Part shown: positions 3,416 to 47,465 of the stretch, one piece after another | Layout of the letters: each line of letters starts with the position of its first letter | Numbering within the stretch: the stretch's first letter is position 1 | Notes under the pieces: model-generated | What the model saw: the letters and a program-made list of their open reading frames with translations, nothing else | The model's database searches: none | Told to the model about the DNA's origin: nothing | Translations under genes and position numbers: made by a program | Source: an uncultured Gammaproteobacteria bacterium | Lineage (GTDB): Bacteria; Patescibacteriota; Patescibacteriia; UBA11705; DATKZF01 | Length of the DNA stretch: 64,000 nucleotides | Reading direction: 5' to 3' | NCBI GenBank assembly: GCA_964411255.1 | Contig: CAYPKD010000005.1 | Location: 5,547-69,546 of the forward strand

Positions 3416-5275
3416 ATGAAGAAAAATTTAACAAAAAATGTAATTATATTCATTGTCATCTTTTTTGTGATTGCTGCAATTTTCAGTACGTATAACCTGT
3501 CCAACAAGGAAAAAGAAACTATTGATGTTCAAAAAATGATTCAGGAAATAGATGAAGAGAAAATTAAGTCAATTGAAGTGGCAGGCAGTGAAATATCATT
3601 AATTTTAAAAGATGATTCATTGCAAACACTAAAAAAAGAGCCAAATGAAAATTTCTCAGATTTGGTGAATAATTATAATATTGATAGGGAAAAACTATCT
3701 TTAATTTCAATTGAAGTAACAGAAGAGAGAGGGATGTCTTTTTGGTTAACCAGCGTTTTACCCTTTTTATTGCCGATTTTATTGATTGTAGCATTTATTT
3801 GGTTTATGATGCGACAAGTTCAGGGTGCAAATACAAAGGCAATGTCTTTTGGTCAGAGCCAGGCAAAGCAGTTTGACAGTAAGGGGAAAAATAAAACCAG
3901 TTTCAAAGATGTTGCAGGTGTGAGGGAAGCAAAAGAAGAATTAAAAGAAGTGGTTGAGTTTTTACGCTATCCAAAAAAGTTTTTAGATTTAGGAGCAAAG
4001 ATTCCTAAGGGTGTATTGCTGATGGGCCCTCCGGGTACAGGGAAAACATTGCTAGCAAAAGCTGTCGCCGGAGAGGCAAAGGTTCCATTCTTTACTATAT
4101 CAGGATCTGAATTTGTTGAGATGTTTGTTGGTGTGGGTGCGTCCCGGGTAAGAGATTTATTTAAGAAAGCAAAAAAGAATGCACCCTGTATTATATTTAT
4201 TGATGAAATTGATGCCGTTGGCAGACAAAGGGGAGCTGGTCTGGGTGGTTCGCATGATGAAAGAGAACAGACATTGAACCAAATTTTGGTTGAGTTAGAC
4301 GGATTTGATGTCAATACAAATGTGATCGTTATGGCAGCTACCAACAGGCCTGATGTTTTAGACCCGGCTTTACTTCGGCCAGGAAGATTTGACCGCAGAG
4401 TTATTTTAGATATGCCAGATATTCGAGATAGAGAAGAAATATTAAAAGTTCATGCTAAAGGCAAGCCATTAACGAAAAAAGTTAACATGAGAAGAGTTGC
4501 AGAAAGAACTCCGGGATTTTCTGGCGCTGACTTATCAAATTTACTAAACGAAGCGGCTATTTTAACAGCCAGAAAGGACAAGCATGAGATTGGTATGGAT
4601 GAAATACTTGATAGTATTGAAAAGGTTCTGCTTGGTCCGGAAAGAAAAAGTAAAGTACTTACTGTGGAAGAGAAAAAAGTAACAGCTTATCATGAAGCTG
4701 GCCATGCTTTAGTTGCCCATATTCAGCCAGGAGTTGATCCGGTGCAAAAAGTATCTATAGTTTCCAGAGGCCATGCAGCTGGGTATACATTGAAATTACC
4801 AACAAAAGACCGAAGCCTGCACAAGAAATCAGAATTTATAAGTGATTTGGCTGTGTTATTGGCAGGTCATACTGTAGAAAAGATAATTTTTGGCGAGGTG
4901 ACTACTGGCGCATCCAATGATTTGCAAAAGGCAACCGATCTCGCAAGAAATATCGTCACCCGATATGGTATGAGCGAGCATTTGGTGCCAAGAATATATG
5001 GGGAAAAAGAAGAATTAGTATTTTTAGGCAGGGATATACGGGAACAGAGAAACTATAGTGAGAAAGTAGCTGAAGTTATTGATAAGGAAATTGATTATCT
5101 AATAAGCGAAGCAGTAAAAACCTCTACTAATATTATTAATGATGAAAAAGATAAGCTTGAAAAGATAGTTAAACATCTTTTGGAACATGAAACGCTCGAA
5201 CAAGATGAGTTTATAAAGTTAATAGGCAAAAAAAAAGAATTAAACAAGAATGATAATATTGAAAAAAAAGAATAA
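3416..5275 (+). CDS. ftsH: ATP-dependent zinc metalloprotease FtsH
   Basis: N-terminal TM segments, Walker [12 protein letters not shown]+ core, HEAGHA zinc-binding motif. Confidence 0.97.
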
Positions 5276-8806: not shown

Positions 8807-8835
8807 TTGACACTTTTCGAAAAAATTGCTAAACT
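8807..8835 (+). promoter_or_regulatory. Sigma70-type promoter upstream of infB
   Basis: TTGACA, 17-nt spacer, TAAACT. Confidence 0.5.
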
Positions 8836-8853
8836 AAAAGCAATCTTTTTATT

Positions 8854-8999
8854 TAAGAAGGCCTAAGAAGGCACCAGATGGCTTAATAGATAAAGAGGAA
8901 AAGAGGTTGAGAAGGCAAGTATTAAAATTGGAATAGCCTTCTTTTCCCATATGCCTCATTTTCCTATCAATCCCGCTTAAGCCCTATCAAGCCTTCTTT
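8854..8999. repeat. 8-nt-periodic word array, inverted halves (infB 5' leader)
   Basis: TAAGAAGG CCTAAGAA GGCACCAG .. AGAAGGCA, then ..GCCTTCTT-type reverse-complement words. Confidence 0.6.
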
Positions 9000-9022
9000 A
9001 ATAATGAAAGGAGAATATTACC

Positions 9023-19036: not shown

Positions 19037-19037
19037 A

Positions 19038-19166
19038 ACCAGCATTTCTGCTGTACGCCTGCCAGTTTCGTGGTCAGCGGCAGAGATGCCGCTTGATTCA
19101 GTGCAGGCGCTTACAAGCACCATTTCTGGTGCTACCCAAAATGACAGCAGAAATGCTGGTTTTTTG
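19038..19166 (+). other. Branched G+C-rich structured element closed by a 17-bp perfect stem plus T-run (complex terminator or small RNA)
   Basis: ACCAGCATTTCTGCTGT (19038-19054) pairs with ACAGCAGAAATGCTGGT (19144-19160), then TTTTTT. Inner hairpins are GCGGCA-GAGA-TGCCGC, AGCACCA-TTTC-TGGTGCT and CGCCTGC/GCAGGCG. Confidence 0.6.
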
Positions 19167-31943: not shown

Positions 31944-32191
31944 TAGCTTCTCCTTATGGCAGGTTTGTTATTAAGCAAGCGTCCTTGCAAAGCAGGGCTG
32001 TCCAGCAGAGATGACTGGATAGCAAAATACAGGTCCCAAAAGGGAAAATTGTAAATGTGCAGGCCTTCTTGACGTCTCAAGAAAAGGCAAAAATAAATGA
32101 AAAATCACTTGCTTTTGCCTTTTCTTGTTTGAGTAAAGTTAACATTTAATATTGCTAGTGTCAAGCATGTATATAAATAAAATAGCCTTTT

Positions 32192-32351
32192 AAAAAACAG
32201 GCCCGTTAGGCCTGATTTAATCTTTTTCAATTTCGGCTTGTGCCGACCTACTTTTTGCTGCCAAAAAGTAGGCAAAAAGCACTGGGGGGCTTCAAATGCG
32301 AAGCAACGATTAAGTTTGAGGATCGCCCCAAGGGCAATCAGCCCCCCAGAC
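32192..32351 (-). ncRNA. Candidate about 160-nt small RNA (unknown family)
   Basis: Weak promoter (TTGTAA, 15 nt, TAGAAT at 32357-32383). 10-bp closing stem 32282-32291/32340-32349 with two inner hairpins. 11-bp hairpin CCTACTTTTTG/CAAAAAGTAGG. TCGGC-ACAA-GCCGA. Terminator CAGGCC-TAACG-GGCCTG plus TTTTTT. Confidence 0.4.
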
Positions 32352-32385
32352 CCCCGATTCTATTGACGAATTATTTTTTACAAAA

Positions 32386-32412
32386 GACCACCAGTTTCCT
32401 GGTGGCTTTTAT
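32386..32412. terminator. Bidirectional Rho-independent terminator
   Basis: GACCACCAG-TTTC-CTGGTGGC, with T-runs on both strands, directly after the stop of 32409..32744. Confidence 0.7.
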
Positions 32413-33140: not shown

Positions 33141-33350
33141 CAAACAAAAAACAGCCTGCCAAAGAGACTGTTTTTTGATATTATCATTGGGATTACTGAT
33201 TTGATATTACTCTAACATCACACTGTTGCCAAGAAAAGATAGTTGGAGAGAGGTTTAAAGAACATCTATCTCTTTTGGCAAGCAGTGTGATGCCAAAGTT
33301 TGTTTACAAACTCCAGAGGAATTAGGAGCAGATGAGTGCTCCTAAAGGAA
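33141..33350 (-). ncRNA. Hairpin-dense 3' UTR or candidate sRNA downstream of the DHH-like gene
   Basis: AGGAGCA-GATGA-GTGCTCCT, AGTTTG-TTTA-CAAACT, a long imperfect hairpin 33216-33242/33266-33292 (about 23 bp), then terminator 33146-33176 with T-run on the minus strand. Confidence 0.4.
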
Positions 33351-33353
33351 AGA

Positions 33354-34199
33354 TTAGGAAAAGAGAGAATTGGCAGTTTCTGCCAGTTTGACAGGATCTA
33401 CGTTGGAAGGACTGGTAGCCGGAGCCTTTCTGGTACCGCGACTGAAAAGAAATCCTGAAGAATGGGCAAACCATTGATCCAGTTCACCCTGCTGTTCAAC
33501 TATTTCTCGAAGCTGGGGATGATCCATGCGCAAAGTCTGTGATCCCTCGCGGAAAATACCCAGACTATGGCCGTCTACGTAGACAATGGCTTTTACACCA
33601 CGCTCAAACAAAACATATGAGGTGGCGCAGTGTCGCATGTTTCTGAGAATAGCCACATTGTCTCCAGGCAAAATTTCAGCCTCATTAGCTTCAATCTTAG
33701 CCATTTGACGGGATCGGCCAGCTTTCAGCATACCATCAAAGATTTCTGACATGCATTCGATAACAGTATCGTCCCGGCCAGGAAAAATAGACTGGAAAGC
33801 ACGAAGTACTGAATTGATGCCGGTCAGCGAGAAGATTTGCTGCGCTTCATCATTGATTTCAGGCGCCAGGAATTTGACAGCAGAGCCATGAGCATCCTGG
33901 GCATCAATGAATGTAACCAGCGGAGCAAGAGCTTCCTGGTCATTTTTTGAAGCCAGTTTTGAAATGATAGTGGCAAAACAGGAATGTACTGTGCCATCAT
34001 CATCTTTTTTGCCTTTTACTCCTTTGCCGCCAGCTTCAATGTCAACGGCAACAGCTTTATCCTCATTGAGTCCAGTCCCGTCCCAGTTAGCTGGGCGGAA
34101 ACAAACTTCAGCATCCATGTATGCTTCAGCAAAAGTACGGATAGCCCATACAGATGCCACCGCATCAAGGTCCACGTTCATGTGGGTAAAAATTTTCAT
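33354..34199 (-). CDS. DHH-superfamily-like phosphoesterase (divergent)
   Basis: SD AAAGAGAGG. Motif I-like THMNVDLDAVAS, AVAVDIEAGG, FIDAQDAHG (DHH appears as DAH), FAHSSGF near the C-terminus. Confidence 0.55.
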   Translation of the reverse strand: MKIFTHMNVDLDAVASVWAIRTFAEAYMDAEVCFRPANWDGTGLNEDKAVAVDIEAGGKGVKGKKDDDGTVHSCFATIISKLASKNDQEALAPLVTFIDAQDAHGSAVKFLAPEINDEAQQIFSLTGINSVLRAFQSIFPGRDDTVIECMSEIFDGMLKAGRSRQMAKIEANEAEILPGDNVAILRNMRHCATSYVLFERGVKAIVYVDGHSLGIFREGSQTLRMDHPQLREIVEQQGELDQWFAHSSGFLFSRGTRKAPATSPSNVDPVKLAETANSLFS

Positions 34200-34317
34200 T
34201 TTCGCCTCTCTTTGTTGTGAAAAATTTCCTCTGGAATTTGCAAATTTTTAATTAACACTCTTCGAAATTTATTAAAAGTTAATAAATTTTGGAGAGCGAA
34301 GGAATTTTGTAATTCCT

Positions 34318-34635
34318 TCAGATTTGAGGTAGCGGCCAAAGCTGACGAAGCTGTTTGTCAAAGAATTCGTAAGCTTCAAAATCAGCACCGCAAAGTGTGA
34401 GTTTTGCAATTACTGGTATGAGTTGATTGTGCTCTGCTTTATTGGTGATTACGACATATGAATGGTAAGCAGAGGGATTGAAGTCATTGATTATGACATA
34501 GTCCAGTTTATCTGGCGGGGTCATCCAGTGTGAATCAATGGTAATAACCTGATCAAACTGAAAGCCTTCTTGTCTGGCTAGATCAATGATTTCAGTTGTG
34601 ATTGAACCGAACCAGAACTGGATCAGTATTTTCAC
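34318..34635 (-). CDS. 105-aa hypothetical protein
   Basis: Start re-assigned to GTG 34635, with AAAGGAG 6 nt upstream. The track's ATG at 34698 has no SD. Confidence 0.6.
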   Translation of the reverse strand: MKILIQFWFGSITTEIIDLARQEGFQFDQVITIDSHWMTPPDKLDYVIINDFNPSAYHSYVVITNKAEHNQLIPVIAKLTLCGADFEAYEFFDKQLRQLWPLPQI

Positions 34636-34739
34636 TGAAAGCTCCTTTTTAAAAAAATTTGAAAAAAAACACTCGAATCTAACAAGAGATCCAAGCATTT
34701 TTTCGTACGAAAGTCCGCTTAAGACTCTCTTTCAAAATT

Positions 34740-35100
34740 TCCAAATAAGTTTTAGAAACTTTGAGAGATCGGAGAGTGCAGTGCTCACTCTCCGATGTCC
34801 GTTGCTTTAACCCGTAGGAGGCAGCTTTAGGTGCCTATGCGTTTTAAGGATGCAAGCGTTAAAGATCTCGGCTTGTTCATCCTGTTACCCATCCCCACTA
34901 GAGGATGTATTGGGTGGTTAGCAGAATTTTATACAGGCGCCTCTGCCAGGGCGCAGATGTAAACACATTGATGACAGATTATTATCTCTTGCCACCAAAT
35001 TAATGTTGTGAAGAGCCTTGTTGCTCTTCTCTGAATTCTGAAAATAAATTTCAGAACTCGGAGAAGCTGAGGATGGTTTGACGCATCCTCAGATATTTCC
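34740..35100. other. ORF-free G+C-rich segment with at least 8 stable hairpins (unknown structured RNA or element)
   Basis: Hairpins at 34768-34796 (11 bp perfect), 34813-34841, 34848-34882, 34888-34914, 34937-34954, 35010-35029, 35031-35061 and 35067-35092. Stops occur in all frames. Confidence 0.4.
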
Positions 35101-35126
35101 TTTCTTAAAATTTGGAGGTGAATAAC

Positions 35127-35567
35127 CTAGGCCTCTTTGTTTTGGCTCTGAGCTTCAGCTTCTGCCTGGGCCTTGGCCTGCTTGAGTGCAGCCTTGGCTT
35201 TGGCTTCAGCTTCGGCCTGCTTGCGCTTTTCAGCGTCAAGTTTGGCCAGACCACCGAGGCCTGTGTTGGGCGCACCACCAGCGCGGCTGGAGCCCTGCCG
35301 TCGGCGCTTGATTTCCAAGCGCTTGAAGCGGGGATCACCATGCTGATGCTTTGCCTGGCGGCGGCGCTGGTTGCGGCGCTGGCGGCGCAGATTACGCTTG
35401 GCGCGAAGTTCATCACGCTCAACCTTGACCTGCGCACGTCGCTCAGCATTCTCAGCTTTGCGAACCAGCTCCTGCCATTTCTTCAGGCCACCATGACGGC
35501 CGCAGAAACCGCGGCCAGCCAGGACATCAGCCGTACACCCGTCATGCTTACACTTTTCCACCTTCAT
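35127..35567 (-). CDS. 146-aa Zn-knuckle (C-x4-C-x10-C-x2-H) plus Arg-rich plus Ala/Lys/Glu-tail protein, probable nucleic-acid binder
   Basis: SD GGGAGG 5 nt before the ATG. Contains EKCKHDGCTADVLAGRGFCGRHGG and RRQRRNQRRRQAKH. Chosen over two overlapping ORFs that lack signals. Confidence 0.6.
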   Translation of the reverse strand: MKVEKCKHDGCTADVLAGRGFCGRHGGLKKWQELVRKAENAERRAQVKVERDELRAKRNLRRQRRNQRRRQAKHQHGDPRFKRLEIKRRRQGSSRAGGAPNTGLGGLAKLDAEKRKQAEAEAKAKAALKQAKAQAEAEAQSQNKEA

Positions 35568-35620
35568 GTGGGCCTCCCTATATAAAAAGATTAATAGACA
35601 TTTTTGTCAAAATTGCTGAA

Positions 35621-35766
35621 AGGACGATGTAGGTGAGATGCCAAAGAGATTTGAAGGGACTTAAATAGATTTATTTCCCTTATCTCAATATGGGCAAAAT
35701 ATGCTCAGCCAATCTAATCGCAAGCGAATAGATCAGCATGAACTTCTCTCTCCTCTACATCGTTCT
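35621..35766. other. About 145-nt three-way-junction-like element
   Basis: AGGACGATGTAGGTGAGA (35621-) pairs with TCTCTCCTCTACATCGTTCT (-35766). Inner hairpins are GAGAT..AAGGGA/TCCCTT..ATCTC and CTAATCG-CAAG-CGAATAG. Confidence 0.4.
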
Positions 35767-35780
35767 GTTCAGAAATTAGA

Positions 35781-35815
35781 CATATAAAAACAGACTGAGA
35801 GAACCATGTCTGTTT
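35781..35815 (-). terminator. Terminator-like hairpin inside the long leader (possible attenuator or sRNA 3' end)
   Basis: Minus strand reads AAACAGAC-ATGGTTCTCTCA-GTCTGTTT followed by TTATAT. Confidence 0.4.
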
Positions 35816-35891
35816 AAAATACAGCTTTATAATCTAGCTGACTCTCTCTCCATGAAATTTGTTAGATTTCAATTTTCGATTTTGATTTAGT

Positions 35892-35920
35892 ATTATAGCA
35901 TATTTTTTTAAAAAAGTCAA
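35892..35920 (-). promoter_or_regulatory. Near-consensus sigma70 promoter reading toward 35567
   Basis: Minus strand reads TTGACT, 17-nt spacer, TATAAT. Confidence 0.55.
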
Positions 35921-36045
35921 GACGAGAGCATAATTTAAGTCGTTTTTTGTCTAAATTTACGGAAATTACAAATTTGCTAAACTGGTAAATTAATTAAAAT
36001 TTTAGTAAAAATATTACGAATAATTACGAATTAGCAAGGCTGTTA

Positions 36046-36074
36046 TTGAAAAGCATATATTTAATTGGTAATAT
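36046..36074 (+). promoter_or_regulatory. Sigma70-type promoter
   Basis: TTGAAA, 17-nt spacer, TAATAT. Confidence 0.45.
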
Positions 36075-36110
36075 GATAGAGCCTGTTTTCATGCGGAAAA
36101 GGAGAAAACC

Positions 36111-36545
36111 ATGCAATCATCACCAGAGCTTGGTGTATATGTGGTATTAAAAGACGGTGTAGAAATTGCACGACATCAAAGTGTGGAAAGATTACATGAA
36201 CAATTTCCAGATTGGAATGATGATGAATCAATTAGCATTGTTTATAAGCCATCTGAGGCAGAAAAAGAAATATTACGTGAACTTAAATTATTTCGATCTG
36301 GTGGGAATGTATTAGCAGAGCATGTAGATCCTTTTATTTTACATAGACAATTATTGGAAAAGCATGGAGATAAATGGATAAAAGAATATGAAGGACAATG
36401 GCTGGCAGTTGATGTTGAAAGTGAGCTGGTTATTGATCATGATTGGATGTTGGCTGATTTAGCTGATCGAATTCATGCAAGCAATAAAGATAATAGTAGA
36501 CTAGTCTTATTGTTAGGGATTTCAGATAATGATTTTATAATTTAA
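36111..36545 (+). CDS. 144-aa hypothetical protein
   Basis: SD AAAAGGAGAA. The C-terminal half (YEGQWLAVDVESELVIDHD..) faintly recalls DUF5678-type domains (weak). Confidence 0.6.
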   Translation: MQSSPELGVYVVLKDGVEIARHQSVERLHEQFPDWNDDESISIVYKPSEAEKEILRELKLFRSGGNVLAEHVDPFILHRQLLEKHGDKWIKEYEGQWLAVDVESELVIDHDWMLADLADRIHASNKDNSRLVLLLGISDNDFII

Positions 36546-36595: not shown

Positions 36596-38023
36596 TTAAA
36601 TAGCATTTTTACCTTTAATCACTGCCCATGGAGTTTTTAATAATATCCAAAAATCAAGTTTTAGCGACCAGTTTTCAATATAGAAAATATCCATTTTTGC
36701 TTCTTCATCAAATGGCAAATCGCTTCGACCACTGATTTGAGCAATACCAGTTATTCCAGGTTTTATATCTAAGGTTCGTAATTGCTCTGGCGTATATCTT
36801 TCAACTTCTCTTGGCTGGTGAGGCCGAGGGCCAACTATGCTCATATTTCCGATAAAGACATTGAAAAATTGAGGCAGCTCATCAATGCTGATTTTTCGGA
36901 TAAATCTGCCAACAGCAGTTACGCGGGGATCTTTTTTTATTTTATATAAAGCACCTCTGGACGCCCCTTGTTCTTTTATTAATTTTTTTTCAAGTTCCAA
37001 TGCTTGTTTACTTGATGGTGCATCTGGCCCTGTACTCATATCCCAATACATTGATCTGAATTTGTATACATTGAATTTTTTTCCATTTTGGCCAACTCTT
37101 TCATTCTTATATATAATTGGCCCTTTTGAATTAATTTTTATGGCAATAGCTGTAAATAGCATTATTGGTGAAGATAAGATTATAAAAATAATTGAACTAA
37201 ATAAATCAGAAAATCTTTTAATAATTTTTTTCCAGCCGTCCAGTGGTGTCTTTTTTATTTCAATTACTGGCAGACCAGCAATCATGTGCGTTTCAATGTT
37301 GGTAGCCCTGGCTTCAAAAGGACCGGCAACATATTTAAAAATAATATGATTATATTTGGCAAAATTGATCAATGAAATTGTATCTTTTCTTGAGATATTT
37401 GGATCAGTTTGAATGATTTCATCAATAAATGTTTTTTTATGAAGAGCTTGAATTTTCATTAATGTGTCTTGATTAAACTGTTCAAAATGTTTGAGAATTT
37501 TTAATCCTAATGAAGGTTGTTTTAAGATTGCATTTTTTACAGCATTAGTATTTGAATTTTTTCCAATAATTATAATTTTATGAGTTCCCCAGCCAGTTTT
37601 ATATAAACTATTTTGAACGATTCTAATTATCATTCTGCCAACAATTATGAAAAGGATGCTGAAAAGCCAGGCAAACAAAATAATAAATCTTGATTCAAAA
37701 AGTTCTCTGACAAAGAACATATATAGAATAATTGCAGTCATGCCAGTAGAGCAGGCTAATATAATCCTGGCCATTTCATCAGTGACTTTTGTTTTTTTAA
37801 ATTTATAAAGAGATGACCAAAAAAAGAAAATCAGCCATATTGCAGCCATTACAATTAGTACACCTAAATATTTATTAAATTCCAGATCAAATACAACCGG
37901 CCTTATTTCAGTAACTGATTCAATAAAACGCAGAGAATAAGCGGTAATACCAGCCAATATTAAAAGAAAGTAGTCAGTGACCAGTTTTATAAGTACAAAT
38001 ATTAATTCTGATTTTTTTATCAT
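36596..38023 (-). CDS. Polyprenyl-phosphate sugar phosphotransferase (WbaP/exopolysaccharide priming enzyme family)
   Basis: Multi-TM N-terminus. C-terminal DELPQFFNV..GNMSIVGPRP and KPGITG motifs (Bac_transf). Confidence 0.9.
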   Translation of the reverse strand: MIKKSELIFVLIKLVTDYFLLILAGITAYSLRFIESVTEIRPVVFDLEFNKYLGVLIVMAAIWLIFFFWSSLYKFKKTKVTDEMARIILACSTGMTAIILYMFFVRELFESRFIILFAWLFSILFIIVGRMIIRIVQNSLYKTGWGTHKIIIIGKNSNTNAVKNAILKQPSLGLKILKHFEQFNQDTLMKIQALHKKTFIDEIIQTDPNISRKDTISLINFAKYNHIIFKYVAGPFEARATNIETHMIAGLPVIEIKKTPLDGWKKIIKRFSDLFSSIIFIILSSPIMLFTAIAIKINSKGPIIYKNERVGQNGKKFNVYKFRSMYWDMSTGPDAPSSKQALELEKKLIKEQGASRGALYKIKKDPRVTAVGRFIRKISIDELPQFFNVFIGNMSIVGPRPHQPREVERYTPEQLRTLDIKPGITGIAQISGRSDLPFDEEAKMDIFYIENWSLKLDFWILLKTPWAVIKGKNAI

Positions 38024-38151: not shown

Positions 38152-38762
38152 GATCCAAACAGGTCTATAAGCCGAATTCTGTCCCACCAGAGGCGGGGAT
38201 GATCATCTATCTAGTCCCGAGATTACTCTCGGGATCAAGCGAGCTACCAAACTTGCTCTTGCACCAGATAAGGTTTACCACCACCTAATGTTACCATTAG
38301 GCAAGAGAAGTATAAATTAAATAGTCACGTGAACCATTTAACTTTTTTCCTTCTCACTTTTCACCTTTCACCACTGCTACGCAGTGGAATTTCTAAATCC
38401 TAATTTTTTAAACTCTGAACAATTTTCAAATTTTCGAAAGGTTTTAAACATTAGAACATTTGAATTTCGAATTTGTTTAGAATTTCGTATTTCGAATTTA
38501 GCGCTTCCATTGCGCAACAATGGCTAGTATAGTCTCTGTGGCACTGGCTGTCGTCTAGGTTTATTAATTATCCTAGAATCGCCTGGGAGTTACCCAGTAT
38601 CATACCGCAGATTACGCTGATTAGCCGATTACGCAGATTGCAGGACTTTTTTTTATCAGCGTAATCAGCGTAATCTACGGTCAGGTGTTCGGACTTTCCT
38701 CCGGCCTACGCTTTTCACTTTGTTCAAAGCTTCGGCTGGCGATCATCCAACCTATTTGGATC
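38152..38762 (-). ncRNA. rnpB: RNase P RNA (bacterial type A core) with large insertions, about 611 nt
   Basis: Minus strand has GGAGGAAAGTCCGAACAC (CR-I/P4 5'), GTGCCACAGAGAC, GGTAAACC and ACAGAATTCGGCTTATAG (CR-V/P4 3'). P1 pairs GATCCAAATAGGT with ACCTGTTTGGATC; P2 pairs GGATGATC with GATCATCC. Confidence 0.88.
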
Positions 38763-38808
38763 ATAACAATTATATCAAAAATATTGTAAATTGTCAATAG
38801 GTATGCAC

Positions 38809-44550: not shown

Positions 44551-46395
44551 TTACTTAGACCAAGCTCTTTTTGTTTTAATATACCAATTTGAGATATTAG
44601 CAAAACGATGAGCAGGAGTAATTATTTGATGAGATCCTGAACCATTAATTTTTTTAGTAACAGGATATGTATAGGTAGGATTAAATAGAAAAATAGCTGG
44701 AATTTCTTCACTGATAATTTTTTGAAATTCAATATATTTTTTTCCTCTTTCTTCATTTGAAGTGGTGTTTCTGGCTTCTTCAAGCAATTTATCAGCTTTG
44801 GCATTTCTAAAACAAGACAGGTTCAAACCTGGATGTTGGCATTGGCTGGAATGCCAAAATGGATAGGGATCAGGGTCGTAACCCAGTATTTCTCCGTAAA
44901 GCAAAATTTCATAATTTCTTTCTTTTATTAAACTTCGCTGAATTTCATTAGCATCTAAAATATTTAGATTTGTTTTTACTCCGATCTGCTGCCAGAACTG
45001 CTGAATTCCTTTGGCTATTTTTTCAAATTCTGCCTGATTAGGGGCGGTAATTGTTAATTCTAAAAATTTATCATCTTTTTTTCTAACTTTAAAAGGATAT
45101 AGTTCGTCTGAATTTTCATTAGAATAGTCAGTCGATTTCCAGCCGGCTTCATCAAGTATTTTTTTTGCTTCTTCGACATTAAAATTATATTTTTTTATAT
45201 CATCAGAAAATCCGATGTAGCCTGGTAAAATAGGACTCTCAATAGTAGAAGCAGATTCCTCATAGACAGAATTTTTTATTTGCTCTTTATTAATGGCAAA
45301 AGCAAGGCTTTGTCTGACTGCTTTGTTTTTCAAAAGATCGTTTTTATTTTGATTTAAAAACAATGCAATGTATTGAGGCAGGGAGAACTGCTGGAAGTTA
45401 ACGCTTCTGTTATTAAATATTTTTTCTTTAAATTGCCCAGGCAGATAACTAATGCTTTCAATGTTCTTATTATTCAAAGCATCAATGGCGCTGTTAAAGT
45501 CTGGATAAAATTTAAAAGTCAATTGATCAATAAAAGGTTGGTCGCCATGATATAAATCATTTTTTACTAAGGTAATGCTTTTTATTGCACCATTTCTTTC
45601 TTTGGTAAGAGATTTTATCTTATATCGGCCGTTGCCAATTGGCTTTAAATTATATTCAGCCAAATTCATGTTTTCAGCGGGAATGTCTATCAGTATATGT
45701 TCTGGCAGAATGCCAAATGACAATGACTCAATGAACAGAGCAAAAGGTTTTTCCAAAGTGAATTTGACAGTATAATCATCCAGCTTTTCTGTTTGCACGC
45801 CACTGAAATTAAAAATTAAAGGACTTTTCGTATTTGGATCCTTAATTCTATCTATGGTGAATAAAATATCATCTGCATTTATTTTTTCATTATCATCCCA
45901 GAAAAGGTCTTCTCTTAGATGAAATGTATACACTTTCTGATCTTCACTAATATCGTATGACGCGGCCATATCATTGACCAGGCCCTTGTCTGGCTCAAAC
46001 TTTAATAAGCCAGAAAATAAAAGATAGCTTAAATCCAGATCAACATCATTTGTCTGCGCCAAAATAGGATTTATATATTGAGGCGATCCGATCAATCCTT
46101 CAGTATATTCTCCGCCGGAAGCTGCGATTACATTTGAATTTATCCAATAAAAATTTATCCCAATACTGACGATGCTTAAAATAATAACGGTAGAAAGAAT
46201 TTTAATTAATATTGATTCTTTTTTTGAAAAGAATTTTTTTAGGTATTTAAGTTGCTTAAAAGATGGTAATTTTTTTTGTTTACTTAAATCCTGAACCAAT
46301 CTTTGATCCATTTTCATTTGCATTTGAACCTTTTTTAATCTAGATTGTTTCTTAGTGTTTGTTCTACTTAAAAAATTGTGAAAAGGATTATTCAC
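44551..46395 (-). CDS. ABC transporter substrate-binding protein, family 5 (peptide/nickel type)
   Basis: N-terminal TM anchor, SBP_bac_5-like length and composition. GTG start. Confidence 0.75.
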   Translation of the reverse strand: MNNPFHNFLSRTNTKKQSRLKKVQMQMKMDQRLVQDLSKQKKLPSFKQLKYLKKFFSKKESILIKILSTVIILSIVSIGINFYWINSNVIAASGGEYTEGLIGSPQYINPILAQTNDVDLDLSYLLFSGLLKFEPDKGLVNDMAASYDISEDQKVYTFHLREDLFWDDNEKINADDILFTIDRIKDPNTKSPLIFNFSGVQTEKLDDYTVKFTLEKPFALFIESLSFGILPEHILIDIPAENMNLAEYNLKPIGNGRYKIKSLTKERNGAIKSITLVKNDLYHGDQPFIDQLTFKFYPDFNSAIDALNNKNIESISYLPGQFKEKIFNNRSVNFQQFSLPQYIALFLNQNKNDLLKNKAVRQSLAFAINKEQIKNSVYEESASTIESPILPGYIGFSDDIKKYNFNVEEAKKILDEAGWKSTDYSNENSDELYPFKVRKKDDKFLELTITAPNQAEFEKIAKGIQQFWQQIGVKTNLNILDANEIQRSLIKERNYEILLYGEILGYDPDPYPFWHSSQCQHPGLNLSCFRNAKADKLLEEARNTTSNEERGKKYIEFQKIISEEIPAIFLFNPTYTYPVTKKINGSGSHQIITPAHRFANISNWYIKTKRAWSK

Positions 46396-46629: not shown

Positions 46630-46769
46630 AAGTTTTTTGTAAGAAACGTCAAATGATATTTACATTATAATTGATAAGGACATATTTGTCAATCCCTGTG
46701 TTGTTAGAAAATTTTTTTGTACTCAGTTTCATTTTTCTATGCAGTAAAAAAATGCTATAATATAAATCA

Positions 46770-47465
46770 ATGAAAGAAGCTAATAAATTGTATAAAAACT
46801 GGTGGTTTAAGCCAACAATAGTTATTATTGGCATTCTTTTGATTATAATAATGATAAACGTAAAAGTCAATAGGCCATTTGAGGATTTTATAAAAAAAAT
46901 AAAACAGGCAGCAGTGCCAATTGAAAGCACTTATAATATGGATGAGATACGAACTGACAATGATCCGTATTTGGGGATTAAAGAAGCACCTGTTCAGATT
47001 GTGGAATTCGGAGATTTTAATTGTCCGTATTGCAAGGCTTCTGTATCAATAATGAGAGAAGTACTGCTAGAGTATGAAGATGAAGTTTTTTATCAGTTCA
47101 GAGATTTTCCAGTAGTATCTGAACAATCAATATTTTTGGCAATGGCAGGCAGCTGCGCTCATGAGCAAAATAAATTTTGGGCATTACATGATTTGCTCTT
47201 TCAAAGACAGGGAGAAATTAATGAACTCAATATTAATCAGTATGCGCAAAGCGTGGGCTTGAACACCAATCAGTTTAGTGAATGTATAAGTAGTGAAAAA
47301 TTTAAAAATGAAGCAATGGAAGATTTTTTAGCTGGAGATAAATTGCAGGTCAAGGGCACGCCAACATTTTTCGTTAATGGGAACAAATTCCAGGGCGTAC
47401 CAACAAAGGAAAATTTAAAAAGAATAATTGATCAGCTTATTTTAATAGAAGAAAAAAAACAATAG
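46770..47465 (+). CDS. DsbA-family thiol:disulfide oxidoreductase, membrane-anchored
   Basis: N-terminal TM, CPYC active site. TGcTATAAT ends 8 nt before the ATG and there is no SD. Confidence 0.85.
   Translation: MKEANKLYKNWWFKPTIVIIGILLIIIMINVKVNRPFEDFIKKIKQAAVPIESTYNMDEIRTDNDPYLGIKEAPVQIVEFGDFNCPYCKASVSIMREVLLEYEDEVFYQFRDFPVVSEQSIFLAMAGSCAHEQNKFWALHDLLFQRQGEINELNINQYAQSVGLNTNQFSECISSEKFKNEAMEDFLAGDKLQVKGTPTFFVNGNKFQGVPTKENLKRIIDQLILIEEKKQ

Follow-up and report, generated by a model that had tools for sequence, protein, structure and literature searches.

What is the untranslated RNA in front of an orphan zinc-knuckle gene in a low-GC bacterium, and how could it act on this gene? The gene lies on contig CAYPKD010000005.1, within the 64,000-nucleotide (nt) stretch of DNA that we analyzed (the window). 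The window is a chromosomal fragment with 35% GC whose genes include rpoC, ftsH, infB, leuS, purA and uvrA. The gene encodes a protein of 146 amino acids (aa) with a zinc knuckle and an arginine-rich tail, and is preceded by a long leader RNA (Table 1). A first-pass annotation had proposed either a small RNA (sRNA) of ~100 nt or a leader of the riboswitch or attenuator type. We find the architecture of an attenuator: a terminator-like hairpin (H2) with a U-run, a possible alternative pairing and no other conserved promoter for the gene. A small-molecule riboswitch, in contrast, finds no support, with no Rfam match and little that is conserved upstream of the hairpin. We thus give an even chance to a cis-acting 5′ leader that combines an intrinsic-terminator attenuator with a sequence-constrained hairpin platform, and that controls the zinc-knuckle gene.

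Sequence comparison indicates that the leader RNA is real and functional, since it is far more conserved than neutral DNA in three metagenomic lineages. The two proteins encoded on either side of the leader (146 aa and 144 aa) are orphans: a set of 5.8 billion proteins contains a single further cluster for each. The contigs of these clusters come from a sister species (loci L001–L005) with ~85% overall nucleotide identity. Between window and sister species, 40–64% of the synonymous sites in neighboring genes differ (pS 0.40–0.64), and intergenic DNA upstream of the −35 box is 30–70% identical. From the −35 box to 35743 (~175 nt), however, there are no substitutions and only one 1-nt indel. The entire RNA is identical at 258 of 271 positions, and nine of the 11 substitutions lie in the first inner hairpin and the junction of the 3′ domain (35742..35687).

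A third, distant lineage emerged from a profile-free search of 1.8 billion representative proteins, which returned a few remote relatives of the 146-aa protein. One of these relatives (P0008 in locus L021) is encoded next to a syntenic RNase P RNA and sugar transferase gene. The sugar transferase of L021 is 78% identical at the aa level and 76.6% at the nt level, the protein downstream of the leader only 34–37% at the aa level; the divergent 144-aa gene has no counterpart there. The L021 leader is recognizably homologous (nhmmer E = 3e-52). Identical blocks of 15–20 nt are shared in the elements that we call GA-box 1, H1, H2, the core of stem P3 together with GA-box 2, H4 and the 3′ strand of P3. 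With a protein identity of 37%, the leader is more conserved than its open reading frame (ORF). Besides the promoter hexamers, whose spacer has diverged, the conserved blocks read GAGAGAGAGTCAGCTA, AGCTG, AAACAG..CATG.TTCTCT..CTGTTTTT, ACGATGTAGAGGAGAGAGAA, GAGAyAAGGGAAATAA, AGTCCCTTCAAATCTCTTT and, in the 3′ strand of P3, ATCTCAyCTACATCGT. In all three lineages the leader sits at the orthologous position, always directly upstream of the same ORF.

Transcription would start at ~35886..35883, behind a sigma-70-type promoter. The first-pass annotation had recognized TTGACT-17-TATAAT on the minus strand, and this match is correct: 11 of 12 hexamer positions agree, and a TG precedes the −10 box. 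It is not the best match in the window, as had been thought, because two sites, at 38797 (upstream of the RNase P RNA) and at 46692, reach 12 of 12. Hexamers alone are not beyond chance here, since seven sites with at least 11 matches occur in the window compared to a mean of 4.8 in block shuffles. Hence it is conservation, not the hexamer match, that validates the leader promoter. The promoter is identical in the sister species, where conservation starts exactly at the −35 box, and L021 carries TTGACA-17-TGtTATAAT (12 of 12, with TG) at the same relative position.

A second TTGACA does exist on the minus strand (35610..35605), as does the Shine-Dalgarno sequence (SD) that had been described together with it. 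The SD reads AGGAGA in L021, at the same spacing. The second TTGACA, however, has no usable conserved −10 box: the −10 decays in the sister species, and the element is absent in L021. We therefore reject a functional second promoter at 35610. No other conserved promoter precedes the ORF when window, sister species and L021 are compared, and the upstream gene is divergent. Thus the ORF must be transcribed through H2.

The leader begins with an A-rich segment in which folding predicts no robust helix. All of its 35 positions are identical to the sister species; the alignment with L021 has 22 matches, 11 mismatches and 10 gap positions. GA-box 1 follows. Its 10-mer GGAGAGAGAG occurs twice in 64 kb (0.01 expected), and GAGAGAGAG within it is invariant in all three lineages. 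The stem sequence of the next element, hairpin H1, is also invariant, with a loop of 9 nt in the window and 5 nt in L021.

The terminator-like hairpin H2, previously placed at 35781–35815, is present. Its description as 8 base pairs (bp) with a 12-nt loop needs correction: refolded, H2 pairs over 11 bp with a single bulged A and closes in a 5-nt loop (UUCUC); UUUUUAUAU comes after the final G-C pair. The L021 hairpin is built alike, with 14 bp and then UUUUUGUUU. The folding energies are −8.8 kcal/mol in the window and −12.5 kcal/mol in L021. One compensatory change (A-U to G-C), two one-sided wobble-compatible changes and one bulge that has become a pair separate the two hairpins; the loop UUCUC is invariant and a U5 run follows in both. 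Between promoter and ORF there is, in other words, a stem-loop with a direct U-run, as in an attenuator.

An alternative structure may form as well. The GA tract around 35850 had been reported as complementary to the hairpin, and 10 bp with the upper part of H2 are indeed possible in both window and L021. In the window GAGAGAGUCA (35848..35839) would pair with UGGUUCUCUC (35806..35797) at −9.7 kcal/mol, and in L021 the corresponding energy is −11.7 kcal/mol. Both substitutions in the segment between window and L021 fit either structure.

Downstream of H2, the 158 nt from 35772 to 35615 fold as a three-way junction (minimum free energy −59.9 kcal/mol, z = −6.35, none of 200 shuffles as good). 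An element closed by a long stem with two inner hairpins had been predicted here, and this holds: in the closing stem P3, 35772..35749 pairs with 35638..35616 over ~20 interrupted bp and encloses both hairpins. The three-way junction folds in the window, but it is not the conserved part. The first inner hairpin, which shows one compensatory change (A-U to G-C) relative to the sister species, has no counterpart in L021; the 3′ domain there is an unbranched rod of 110 nt (z = −6.1). Hence the junction is a lineage-specific elaboration.

What the lineages share are the strands of P3 and H4. The P3 core ACGATGTAGAGGAGAGAG is identical in all three, and GA-box 2, which includes one of only four GGAGAGAG 8-mers in the window, is invariant save for a 1-nt deletion in the sister species. 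H4 appears in every predicted fold; it is identical to the sister species at 41 of 41 positions, and in L021 both strands are identical and only the loop center differs. Covariation is possible in the short helix below H4, which reads UGCC/GGCA in the window and UUU/AAA in L021, though the alignment is ambiguous at this point. The complete leader folds with z = −4.9; its 5′ 112 nt by themselves show ordinary stability (z = −0.9). Stable folds are no rarity in this DNA, as 120-nt stretches with z ≤ −5 occur in six of the 21 intergenic regions of the window.

To explain these features, we propose the following order of events. Transcription would begin near 35885 at the strong extended −10 promoter. 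The polymerase would pass the A-rich stretch, GA-box 1 and H1, and would then meet H2 (35815..35788) and its U-run. As an intrinsic terminator, H2 would stop part of the transcripts after ~100 nt (attenuation). Read-through would be favored when the loop and upper stem of H2 are engaged by GA-box 1 together with the 5′ strand of H1. Because this alternative fold is 4.3–6.5 kcal/mol less stable than H1 plus H2, termination would be the default, and a factor would be needed to shift it. A small-molecule aptamer is unlikely to be this sensor, since too little is conserved upstream of H2.

The read-through RNA would carry the long hairpin domain (35772..35616), followed by the SD and the ORF. The base-for-base conservation of the P3 and H4 strands suggests that the read-through leader is recognized in a sequence-specific manner. 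A protein may bind the hairpin domain, and we infer that the most economical candidate is the encoded basic protein itself (autoregulation). Alternatively, the domain may be an RNase III-type processing or stability site.

Several points weigh against this attenuator-type leader. H2 is thermodynamically a weak terminator with 3–4 G-C pairs, and a simple terminator scan of the window does not list it, because the stem is weak (−8.8 kcal/mol) and bulged. The energetic disadvantage of the antiterminator fold counts against the switch too. RNAalifold predicts 61 pairs, of which three are changed on both sides, with a covariation term of +1.6, and only two independent lineages contribute to covariation. 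For the outer closing stem we reject covariation: both lineages can form it, but chimeras of window and L021 flanks pair just as well. H1, the P3 core and H4 say nothing about pairing because they are invariant on both strands; such stems could reflect pairing in trans or another constraint. The analysis of covariation among homologues that had been suggested earlier thus yields one compensatory pair in H2 and is overall too thin to prove the fold. The fold rests on thermodynamics and on conservation in two lineages, not on statistically meaningful covariation. The 146-aa protein has no match in PDB or Pfam and none by fold, nothing links it to RNA binding, and three family members (loci L019, L022 and L060) have short or unstructured spacers upstream. 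Finally, the start site, the termination at H2 and the read-through are all deduced from sequence, as are the role of the alternative pairing and the identity of the factor that would throw the switch.

Table 1. Features of the leader, its transcription unit and neighboring genes (positions in the window)
Feature	Position	Strand	Description
Leader RNA		−	~320 nt, untranslated; between the divergent 144-aa orphan gene and the 146-aa zinc-knuckle ORF
Promoter, sigma-70 type	35892..35920	−	TTGACT-17-TGcTATAAT, 11/12; −35 box 35920..35915, extended −10 box 35900..35892
A-rich, weakly structured 5′ segment	35852..35886	−	
GA-box 1	35842..35851	−	GGAGAGAGAG; 3′ part plus UCA (35848..35839) is the candidate antiterminator strand
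Hairpin H1	35821..35841	−	CAGCU/AGCUG stem, 9-nt loop
Hairpin H2, intrinsic-terminator-like	35782..35815	−	5′ strand 35815..35804, loop UUCUC 35803..35799, 3′ strand 35798..35788, U-run to 35782; arms AAACAGAC...GTCTGTTT, then T-run (35815..35782)
P3, 5′ strand	35749..35772	−	outer CUGAA.AG, core ACGAUGUAG, inner GAGA
GA-box 2	35743..35755	−	GAGGAGAGAGAAG; partly in P3 pairing, partly in the junction
First inner hairpin	35703..35743	−	lineage-specific insert
Apical hairpin H4	35646..35686	−	GAGA-U-AAGGGA, 16-nt loop opening AAUAA, UCCCUU-CAAA-UCUC
P3, 3′ strand	35616..35645	−	UCUC, AC, CUACAUCGU, CU, UUCAG; GGCA before it pairs with UGCC 35696..35693
SD of the zinc-knuckle gene	35578..35573	−	GGGAGG; ATG start codon 35567..35565
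Zinc-knuckle protein gene	35127..35567	−	146 aa, Arg-rich tail; proposed controlled gene
Intrinsic terminator E2	34696..34662	−	GCUUGGAUCUC...GAUUCGAGUG plus U8, palindrome UUUCGUACGAAA before it; conserved, L021 4130..4200
Hairpin E3	33292..33216	−	77 nt, z = −8.15; L021 counterpart 4300..4441 (including terminator)
144-aa orphan gene	36111..36545	+	divergent from the leader
Sugar transferase gene	38023..36596	−	farther upstream of the leader
RNase P RNA	38758..38152	−	sole Rfam match in the 64-kb window

The leader matches no known RNA family. The Rfam scan proposed in the first-pass annotation found no family for it: Rfam 15 at gathering threshold, with its models of riboswitches, T-box, PyrR site, 6S, SRP, tmRNA, Y RNA and known sRNAs, detects nothing but the RNase P RNA in the 64-kb window. 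A scan of 35400..36150 at E ≤ 10 returns two chance matches only (17.7 and 16.3 bits), and in the region downstream of the leader and in the L021 locus nothing but RNase P is found.

Three known classes can be rejected on their architecture. TRAP leaders carry nine to eleven GAG/UAG triplets spaced 2–3 nt apart. Our leader has one contiguous GA run of 9–10 nt and a second of 12–13 nt, without any array of spaced triplets. 6S RNA is a rod of ~180 nt with a large central bubble, in which the ends form a closing stem. Here, the 3′ domain is a rod of 110 nt (L021) or a three-way junction (window), it has no large two-sided bubble, and Rfam gives no match. A leader-peptide attenuator would require a small ORF, and no small ORF is conserved, as frames and lengths vary between lineages. 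An AUG at 35854 opens eight codons in the window and is AUU in L021. In the window, a frame of 12 codons starts at an AUG inside H2; its L021 counterpart shifts frame after codon 4 and runs for 55 codons. Both of these ORFs lack an SD.

Protein-mediated attenuation leaders of Bacillus offer a close comparison to the proposed switch. In the trp leader with TRAP and the pyr leaders with PyrR, the bound factor decides which leader structure forms. Our leader shares with them a promoter, a putative intrinsic terminator, a purine-rich stretch ahead of it that could base-pair with a portion of the hairpin, and a single gene downstream. Unlike in TRAP leaders, the GA run is contiguous, and unlike in pyr leaders, no PyrR binding loop is matched in Rfam. 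The leader also differs from both in that its alternative helix stops short of the base of the stem, and in that a second large conserved hairpin follows the terminator.

The autoregulatory leaders of ribosomal-protein genes, rnc and pnp, which are bound or cleaved at a long hairpin, share another feature with our leader: a long irregular hairpin with conserved sequence in the 5′ untranslated region (UTR), in front of a gene for a small basic protein that possibly binds nucleic acid. The rnc and pnp leaders are cut by RNase III at their long hairpin. In contrast to these systems, the protein encoded here has no recognized RNA-binding or ribosomal-protein domain, and we found no mimicry of rRNA.

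In kind, the leader is ordinary: it is an uncatalogued leader or attenuator RNA with a very narrow known distribution. If our reading is true, then an uncultivated low-GC lineage has a structured leader RNA that is more conserved than the protein it precedes, and one family is added to the catalog of attenuator leaders. The candidate protein-binding hairpins would also give a handle on the role of the orphan zinc-knuckle family. The leader, found in three lineages, has no bearing on a long-standing open question; its value is mainly that of a clean candidate for follow-up.

Alternatively, the first 100–105 nt, from the promoter to H2, could be a trans-acting sRNA with the GA-box as its seed. 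Expression of the ORF would then depend on incidental read-through alone, with the long hairpin as an element of its own. We regard this as possible, though rather unlikely. An sRNA gene would fit the promoter, since the only other promoter of the consensus type with a TG in the window is that of the RNase P RNA. It would also fit the 5′ module, which is the most conserved part of the RNA (no changes relative to the sister species) and ends in a conserved hairpin and a U-run. A complementary CUCUCUCC loop is available on the same strand in hairpin E3 (33253..33245) and is conserved in both lineages. However, the RNA always precedes the same ORF, which lacks a conserved promoter of its own and hence needs read-through; one RNA could fill both roles. 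L021 preserves little of the A-rich 5′ part. Conservation of the 3′ domain equals that of the 5′ module, and a model with an sRNA alone offers no explanation for this. Moreover, 2–5% of shuffled loops equal the predicted duplex between GA-box and E3.

A combination of both roles has a precedent. SreA and SreB of Listeria are terminated riboswitch transcripts that double as trans-acting sRNAs. Our leader resembles them in its strong promoter, in the short terminated 5′ product and the read-through mRNA that are predicted from the same start, and in a conserved single-stranded motif, the GA-box, that could pair in trans. Unlike SreA and SreB, it has no ligand-binding aptamer, and the sole candidate partner is the CU loop of E3 at the same locus.

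This partner leads to a more specific idea, which we consider improbable: the leader could be one half of a lineage-specific RNA-RNA circuit with hairpin E3. Either GA-box 1 (the candidate antiterminator strand) or GA-box 2 (the strand of the closing stem) would pair with the E3 loop, in cis or in trans, and this pairing would either set termination at H2 or open the hairpin platform. The loop CCUCUCUCC at 33253..33245 is complementary to both GA-boxes, and the duplex of loop and leader is predicted at −19 and −20.8 kcal/mol. In both the window and L021, E3 stands at the end of the same gene block, and its outer stem shows a compensatory C-G to U-A change in L021. A terminator that looks bidirectional follows at 33176..33141, and E3 has no match in Rfam. 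Of the four GGAGAGAG 8-mers in the window (either strand), three lie in the zinc-knuckle unit; L021 has one GA and one CU copy. Pentamers of GAGAG or CTCTC reach 11.2 per kb in the non-coding parts of the unit compared to 1.05 per kb in other intergenic DNA. With energies that a few percent of shuffled loops also attain, the modeled pairing of E3 with the GA-boxes is a lead rather than a result.

A pairing between distant parts of a message is known from the icaR mRNA of Staphylococcus aureus, whose 5′ UTR pairs with its 3′ UTR (PMC3868564). Here too, a pyrimidine-rich motif that resembles an anti-SD, in the loop of a distal hairpin (CCUCUCUCC of E3), is complementary to SD-like purine boxes (GGAGAGAG at 35851 and 35753), and both motifs are conserved in the distant lineage L021. 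Unlike in icaR, the complementary box is 2.4 kb away (1.4 kb in L021), past terminator E2 and two genes. Its predicted partners are the GA-boxes and not clearly the true SD. Shuffled loops form duplexes that are only slightly worse, and the two motifs may lie on separate transcripts. An anti-SD box, CACCUCC just past the stop codon of the zinc-knuckle gene, is absent in the sister species and was rejected. If the circuit existed, an RNA-only switch would keep a compositionally foreign gene (GC at third codon positions, GC3, of 0.6 in a genome with GC3 0.2) under tight control.

The long hairpin could also be no part of a switch. It might be an RNase III-type processing site or an element that stabilizes the mRNA, with H2 as a mere pause site or structural hairpin; this, too, we think distinctly doubtful. 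A helix of ~20 bp with small internal loops suits nucleases specific for double strands, and the transcription unit is rich in hairpins throughout (z = −8.06 in the 3′ UTR and −8.15 in E3). Such sites, however, rarely need base-for-base conservation of strands, loops and flanks, and it would be left unexplained why GA-box 1, H1 and the U-run behind H2 are conserved.

A riboswitch that senses a metabolite or an ion, and controls termination at H2 or translation of the ORF, is very unlikely. A long, highly conserved and stable leader with a terminator-like hairpin does look generally similar to a riboswitch. Yet no Rfam 15 family matches even at E ≤ 10. Upstream of H2 only the GA run (GAGAGAGAG) and a 5-bp hairpin are conserved, with a loop that varies in sequence and from 9 to 5 nt in length, which is too little for a binding pocket. 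The large domain comes only after the terminator, and no predicted fold has it mask the SD; the stems of this domain are invariant instead of covarying, and one branch is dispensable. Furthermore, the downstream gene encodes a fast-evolving basic protein, neither an enzyme nor a transporter.

Near-consensus hexamer pairs are expected in AT-rich DNA and strong hairpins are common between the genes of the window, but a DNA-level or chance feature (an operator-type inverted repeat, a miniature mobile element or repeat, or an AT-rich promoter look-alike with fortuitous hairpins) is scarcely credible for an element that is single-copy in the window and in every locus examined, orthologous in three lineages, free of substitutions over ~175 nt, strand-specific in its G-U pairs and in the U-run after the hairpin, and without a similar element in phages or plasmids.

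The narrow distribution holds across several collections. A nhmmer search (--max) with the three-lineage profile found no extra copies in the window and all 101 loci, and the profile does not match the protein-homologue loci L019, L020, L022, L060 and L061. Genome contigs of GTDB representatives, a collection without the genome of the window, gave nine chance matches to the three-box pattern GA-box/TTCTCTC/GA-box. Metagenome contigs scanned with GTCCCTTCAAATCTCTTT gave 40 matches, of which only the sister-species contig is real; this collection is incomplete, as the contigs of the window and of L021 were not returned, and so absence elsewhere is not proven. Three scans of viral contigs returned only chance matches, and distant blastn against phages and plasmids found just 40 nt that resemble a promoter, in a Lactococcus phage.

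That the zinc-knuckle ORF is a true gene follows from its dN/dS of 0.18 relative to the sister species, from the motifs shared across the family and from an mRNA without special structure. The idea that the ORF is itself a structured RNA is rejected for the same dN/dS and for fold z values of only −2.7 and −1.1. The family comprises only eight clusters with the common motif CxHxGC...GRGYCGRHGG and a second motif, AGxPxTGxxxLAKLD. The 146-aa protein has a sub-threshold match to the Pfam family Zf_WRKY19 and resembles DUF3761 repeats; its AlphaFold model gave nothing usable when compared with the PDB by Foldseek.

In composition, the gene stands out. Its GC content is 0.61 and its GC3 is 0.62 (0.60 in the sister species, 0.67 in L021) compared to a GC3 of 0.17–0.28 in its neighbors. 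The leader has a GC content of 31–35%, and other members of the family lie on contigs with 54–66% GC. The gene looks horizontally acquired by its composition, with GC-rich synonymous sites that were kept through a long divergence. Another family member (P0007) has an unrelated leader of 200 nt (L020 650..850, z = −5.85) behind TTGACA-17-TAGGAT. This leader opens with a long hairpin and UUUUGUU, followed by more hairpins, and hence has the same general layout.

The transcription unit of the zinc-knuckle gene probably ends at terminator E2. The 472 nt that follow the ORF (34655..35126, minus strand) form about eight stable hairpins (z = −8.06) and are 87–95% identical in the sister species. The first two of these hairpins have counterparts after the L021 ORF, where CUUCUC/GAGAAG is replaced by CCUCUC/GAGAGG. 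Between E2 and E3 lie two orphan genes (33354..34635, minus strand; 281 aa and 105/126 aa; GC 0.45–0.47). The gap between E2 and E3 is only ~100 nt in L021, and so the two genes are either an insertion in the lineage of the window or a loss in L021. Because E2 overlaps the start of the 126-aa ORF (34698..34318), its first 21 codons are doubtful; one public gene call gives 105 aa. A 465-nt intergenic region that adjoins this orphan-gene block (31944..32408, minus strand) contains several perfect hairpins and terminators (z = −7.74).

The RNase P RNA upstream is unusual in length. It has 607 nt for a model of 367 positions and hence must hold large insertions; the L021 counterpart has 480 nt. 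The stretch 38524..38368 fails to align with the sister species. Its promoter is a perfect 12 of 12 match with a TG (38797..38769, minus strand).

Other parts of the window hold structured RNA as well. Right after leuS, 125 nt (19037..19161, plus strand) form a three-way junction with an 18-bp closing stem and a U-run (z = −7.25). Its general shape is like that of the three-way junction in the leader, and its sequence is unrelated. Upstream of infB, ~190 nt (8809..9022, plus strand) follow TTGACA-17-TAAACT. In these ~190 nt, AAGAAGGC boxes recur along with GCCUUCUUU boxes complementary to them (local z = −4.6), and the stretch is possibly a regulatory leader of the gene for initiation factor IF-2. 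Finally, two promoters on the minus strand (46657..46870), with 12 of 12 matches at 46692 and 11 of 12 at 46870, lie ~260–470 nt upstream of the gene for an oligopeptide-binding protein (46395..44551), which implies another long leader.

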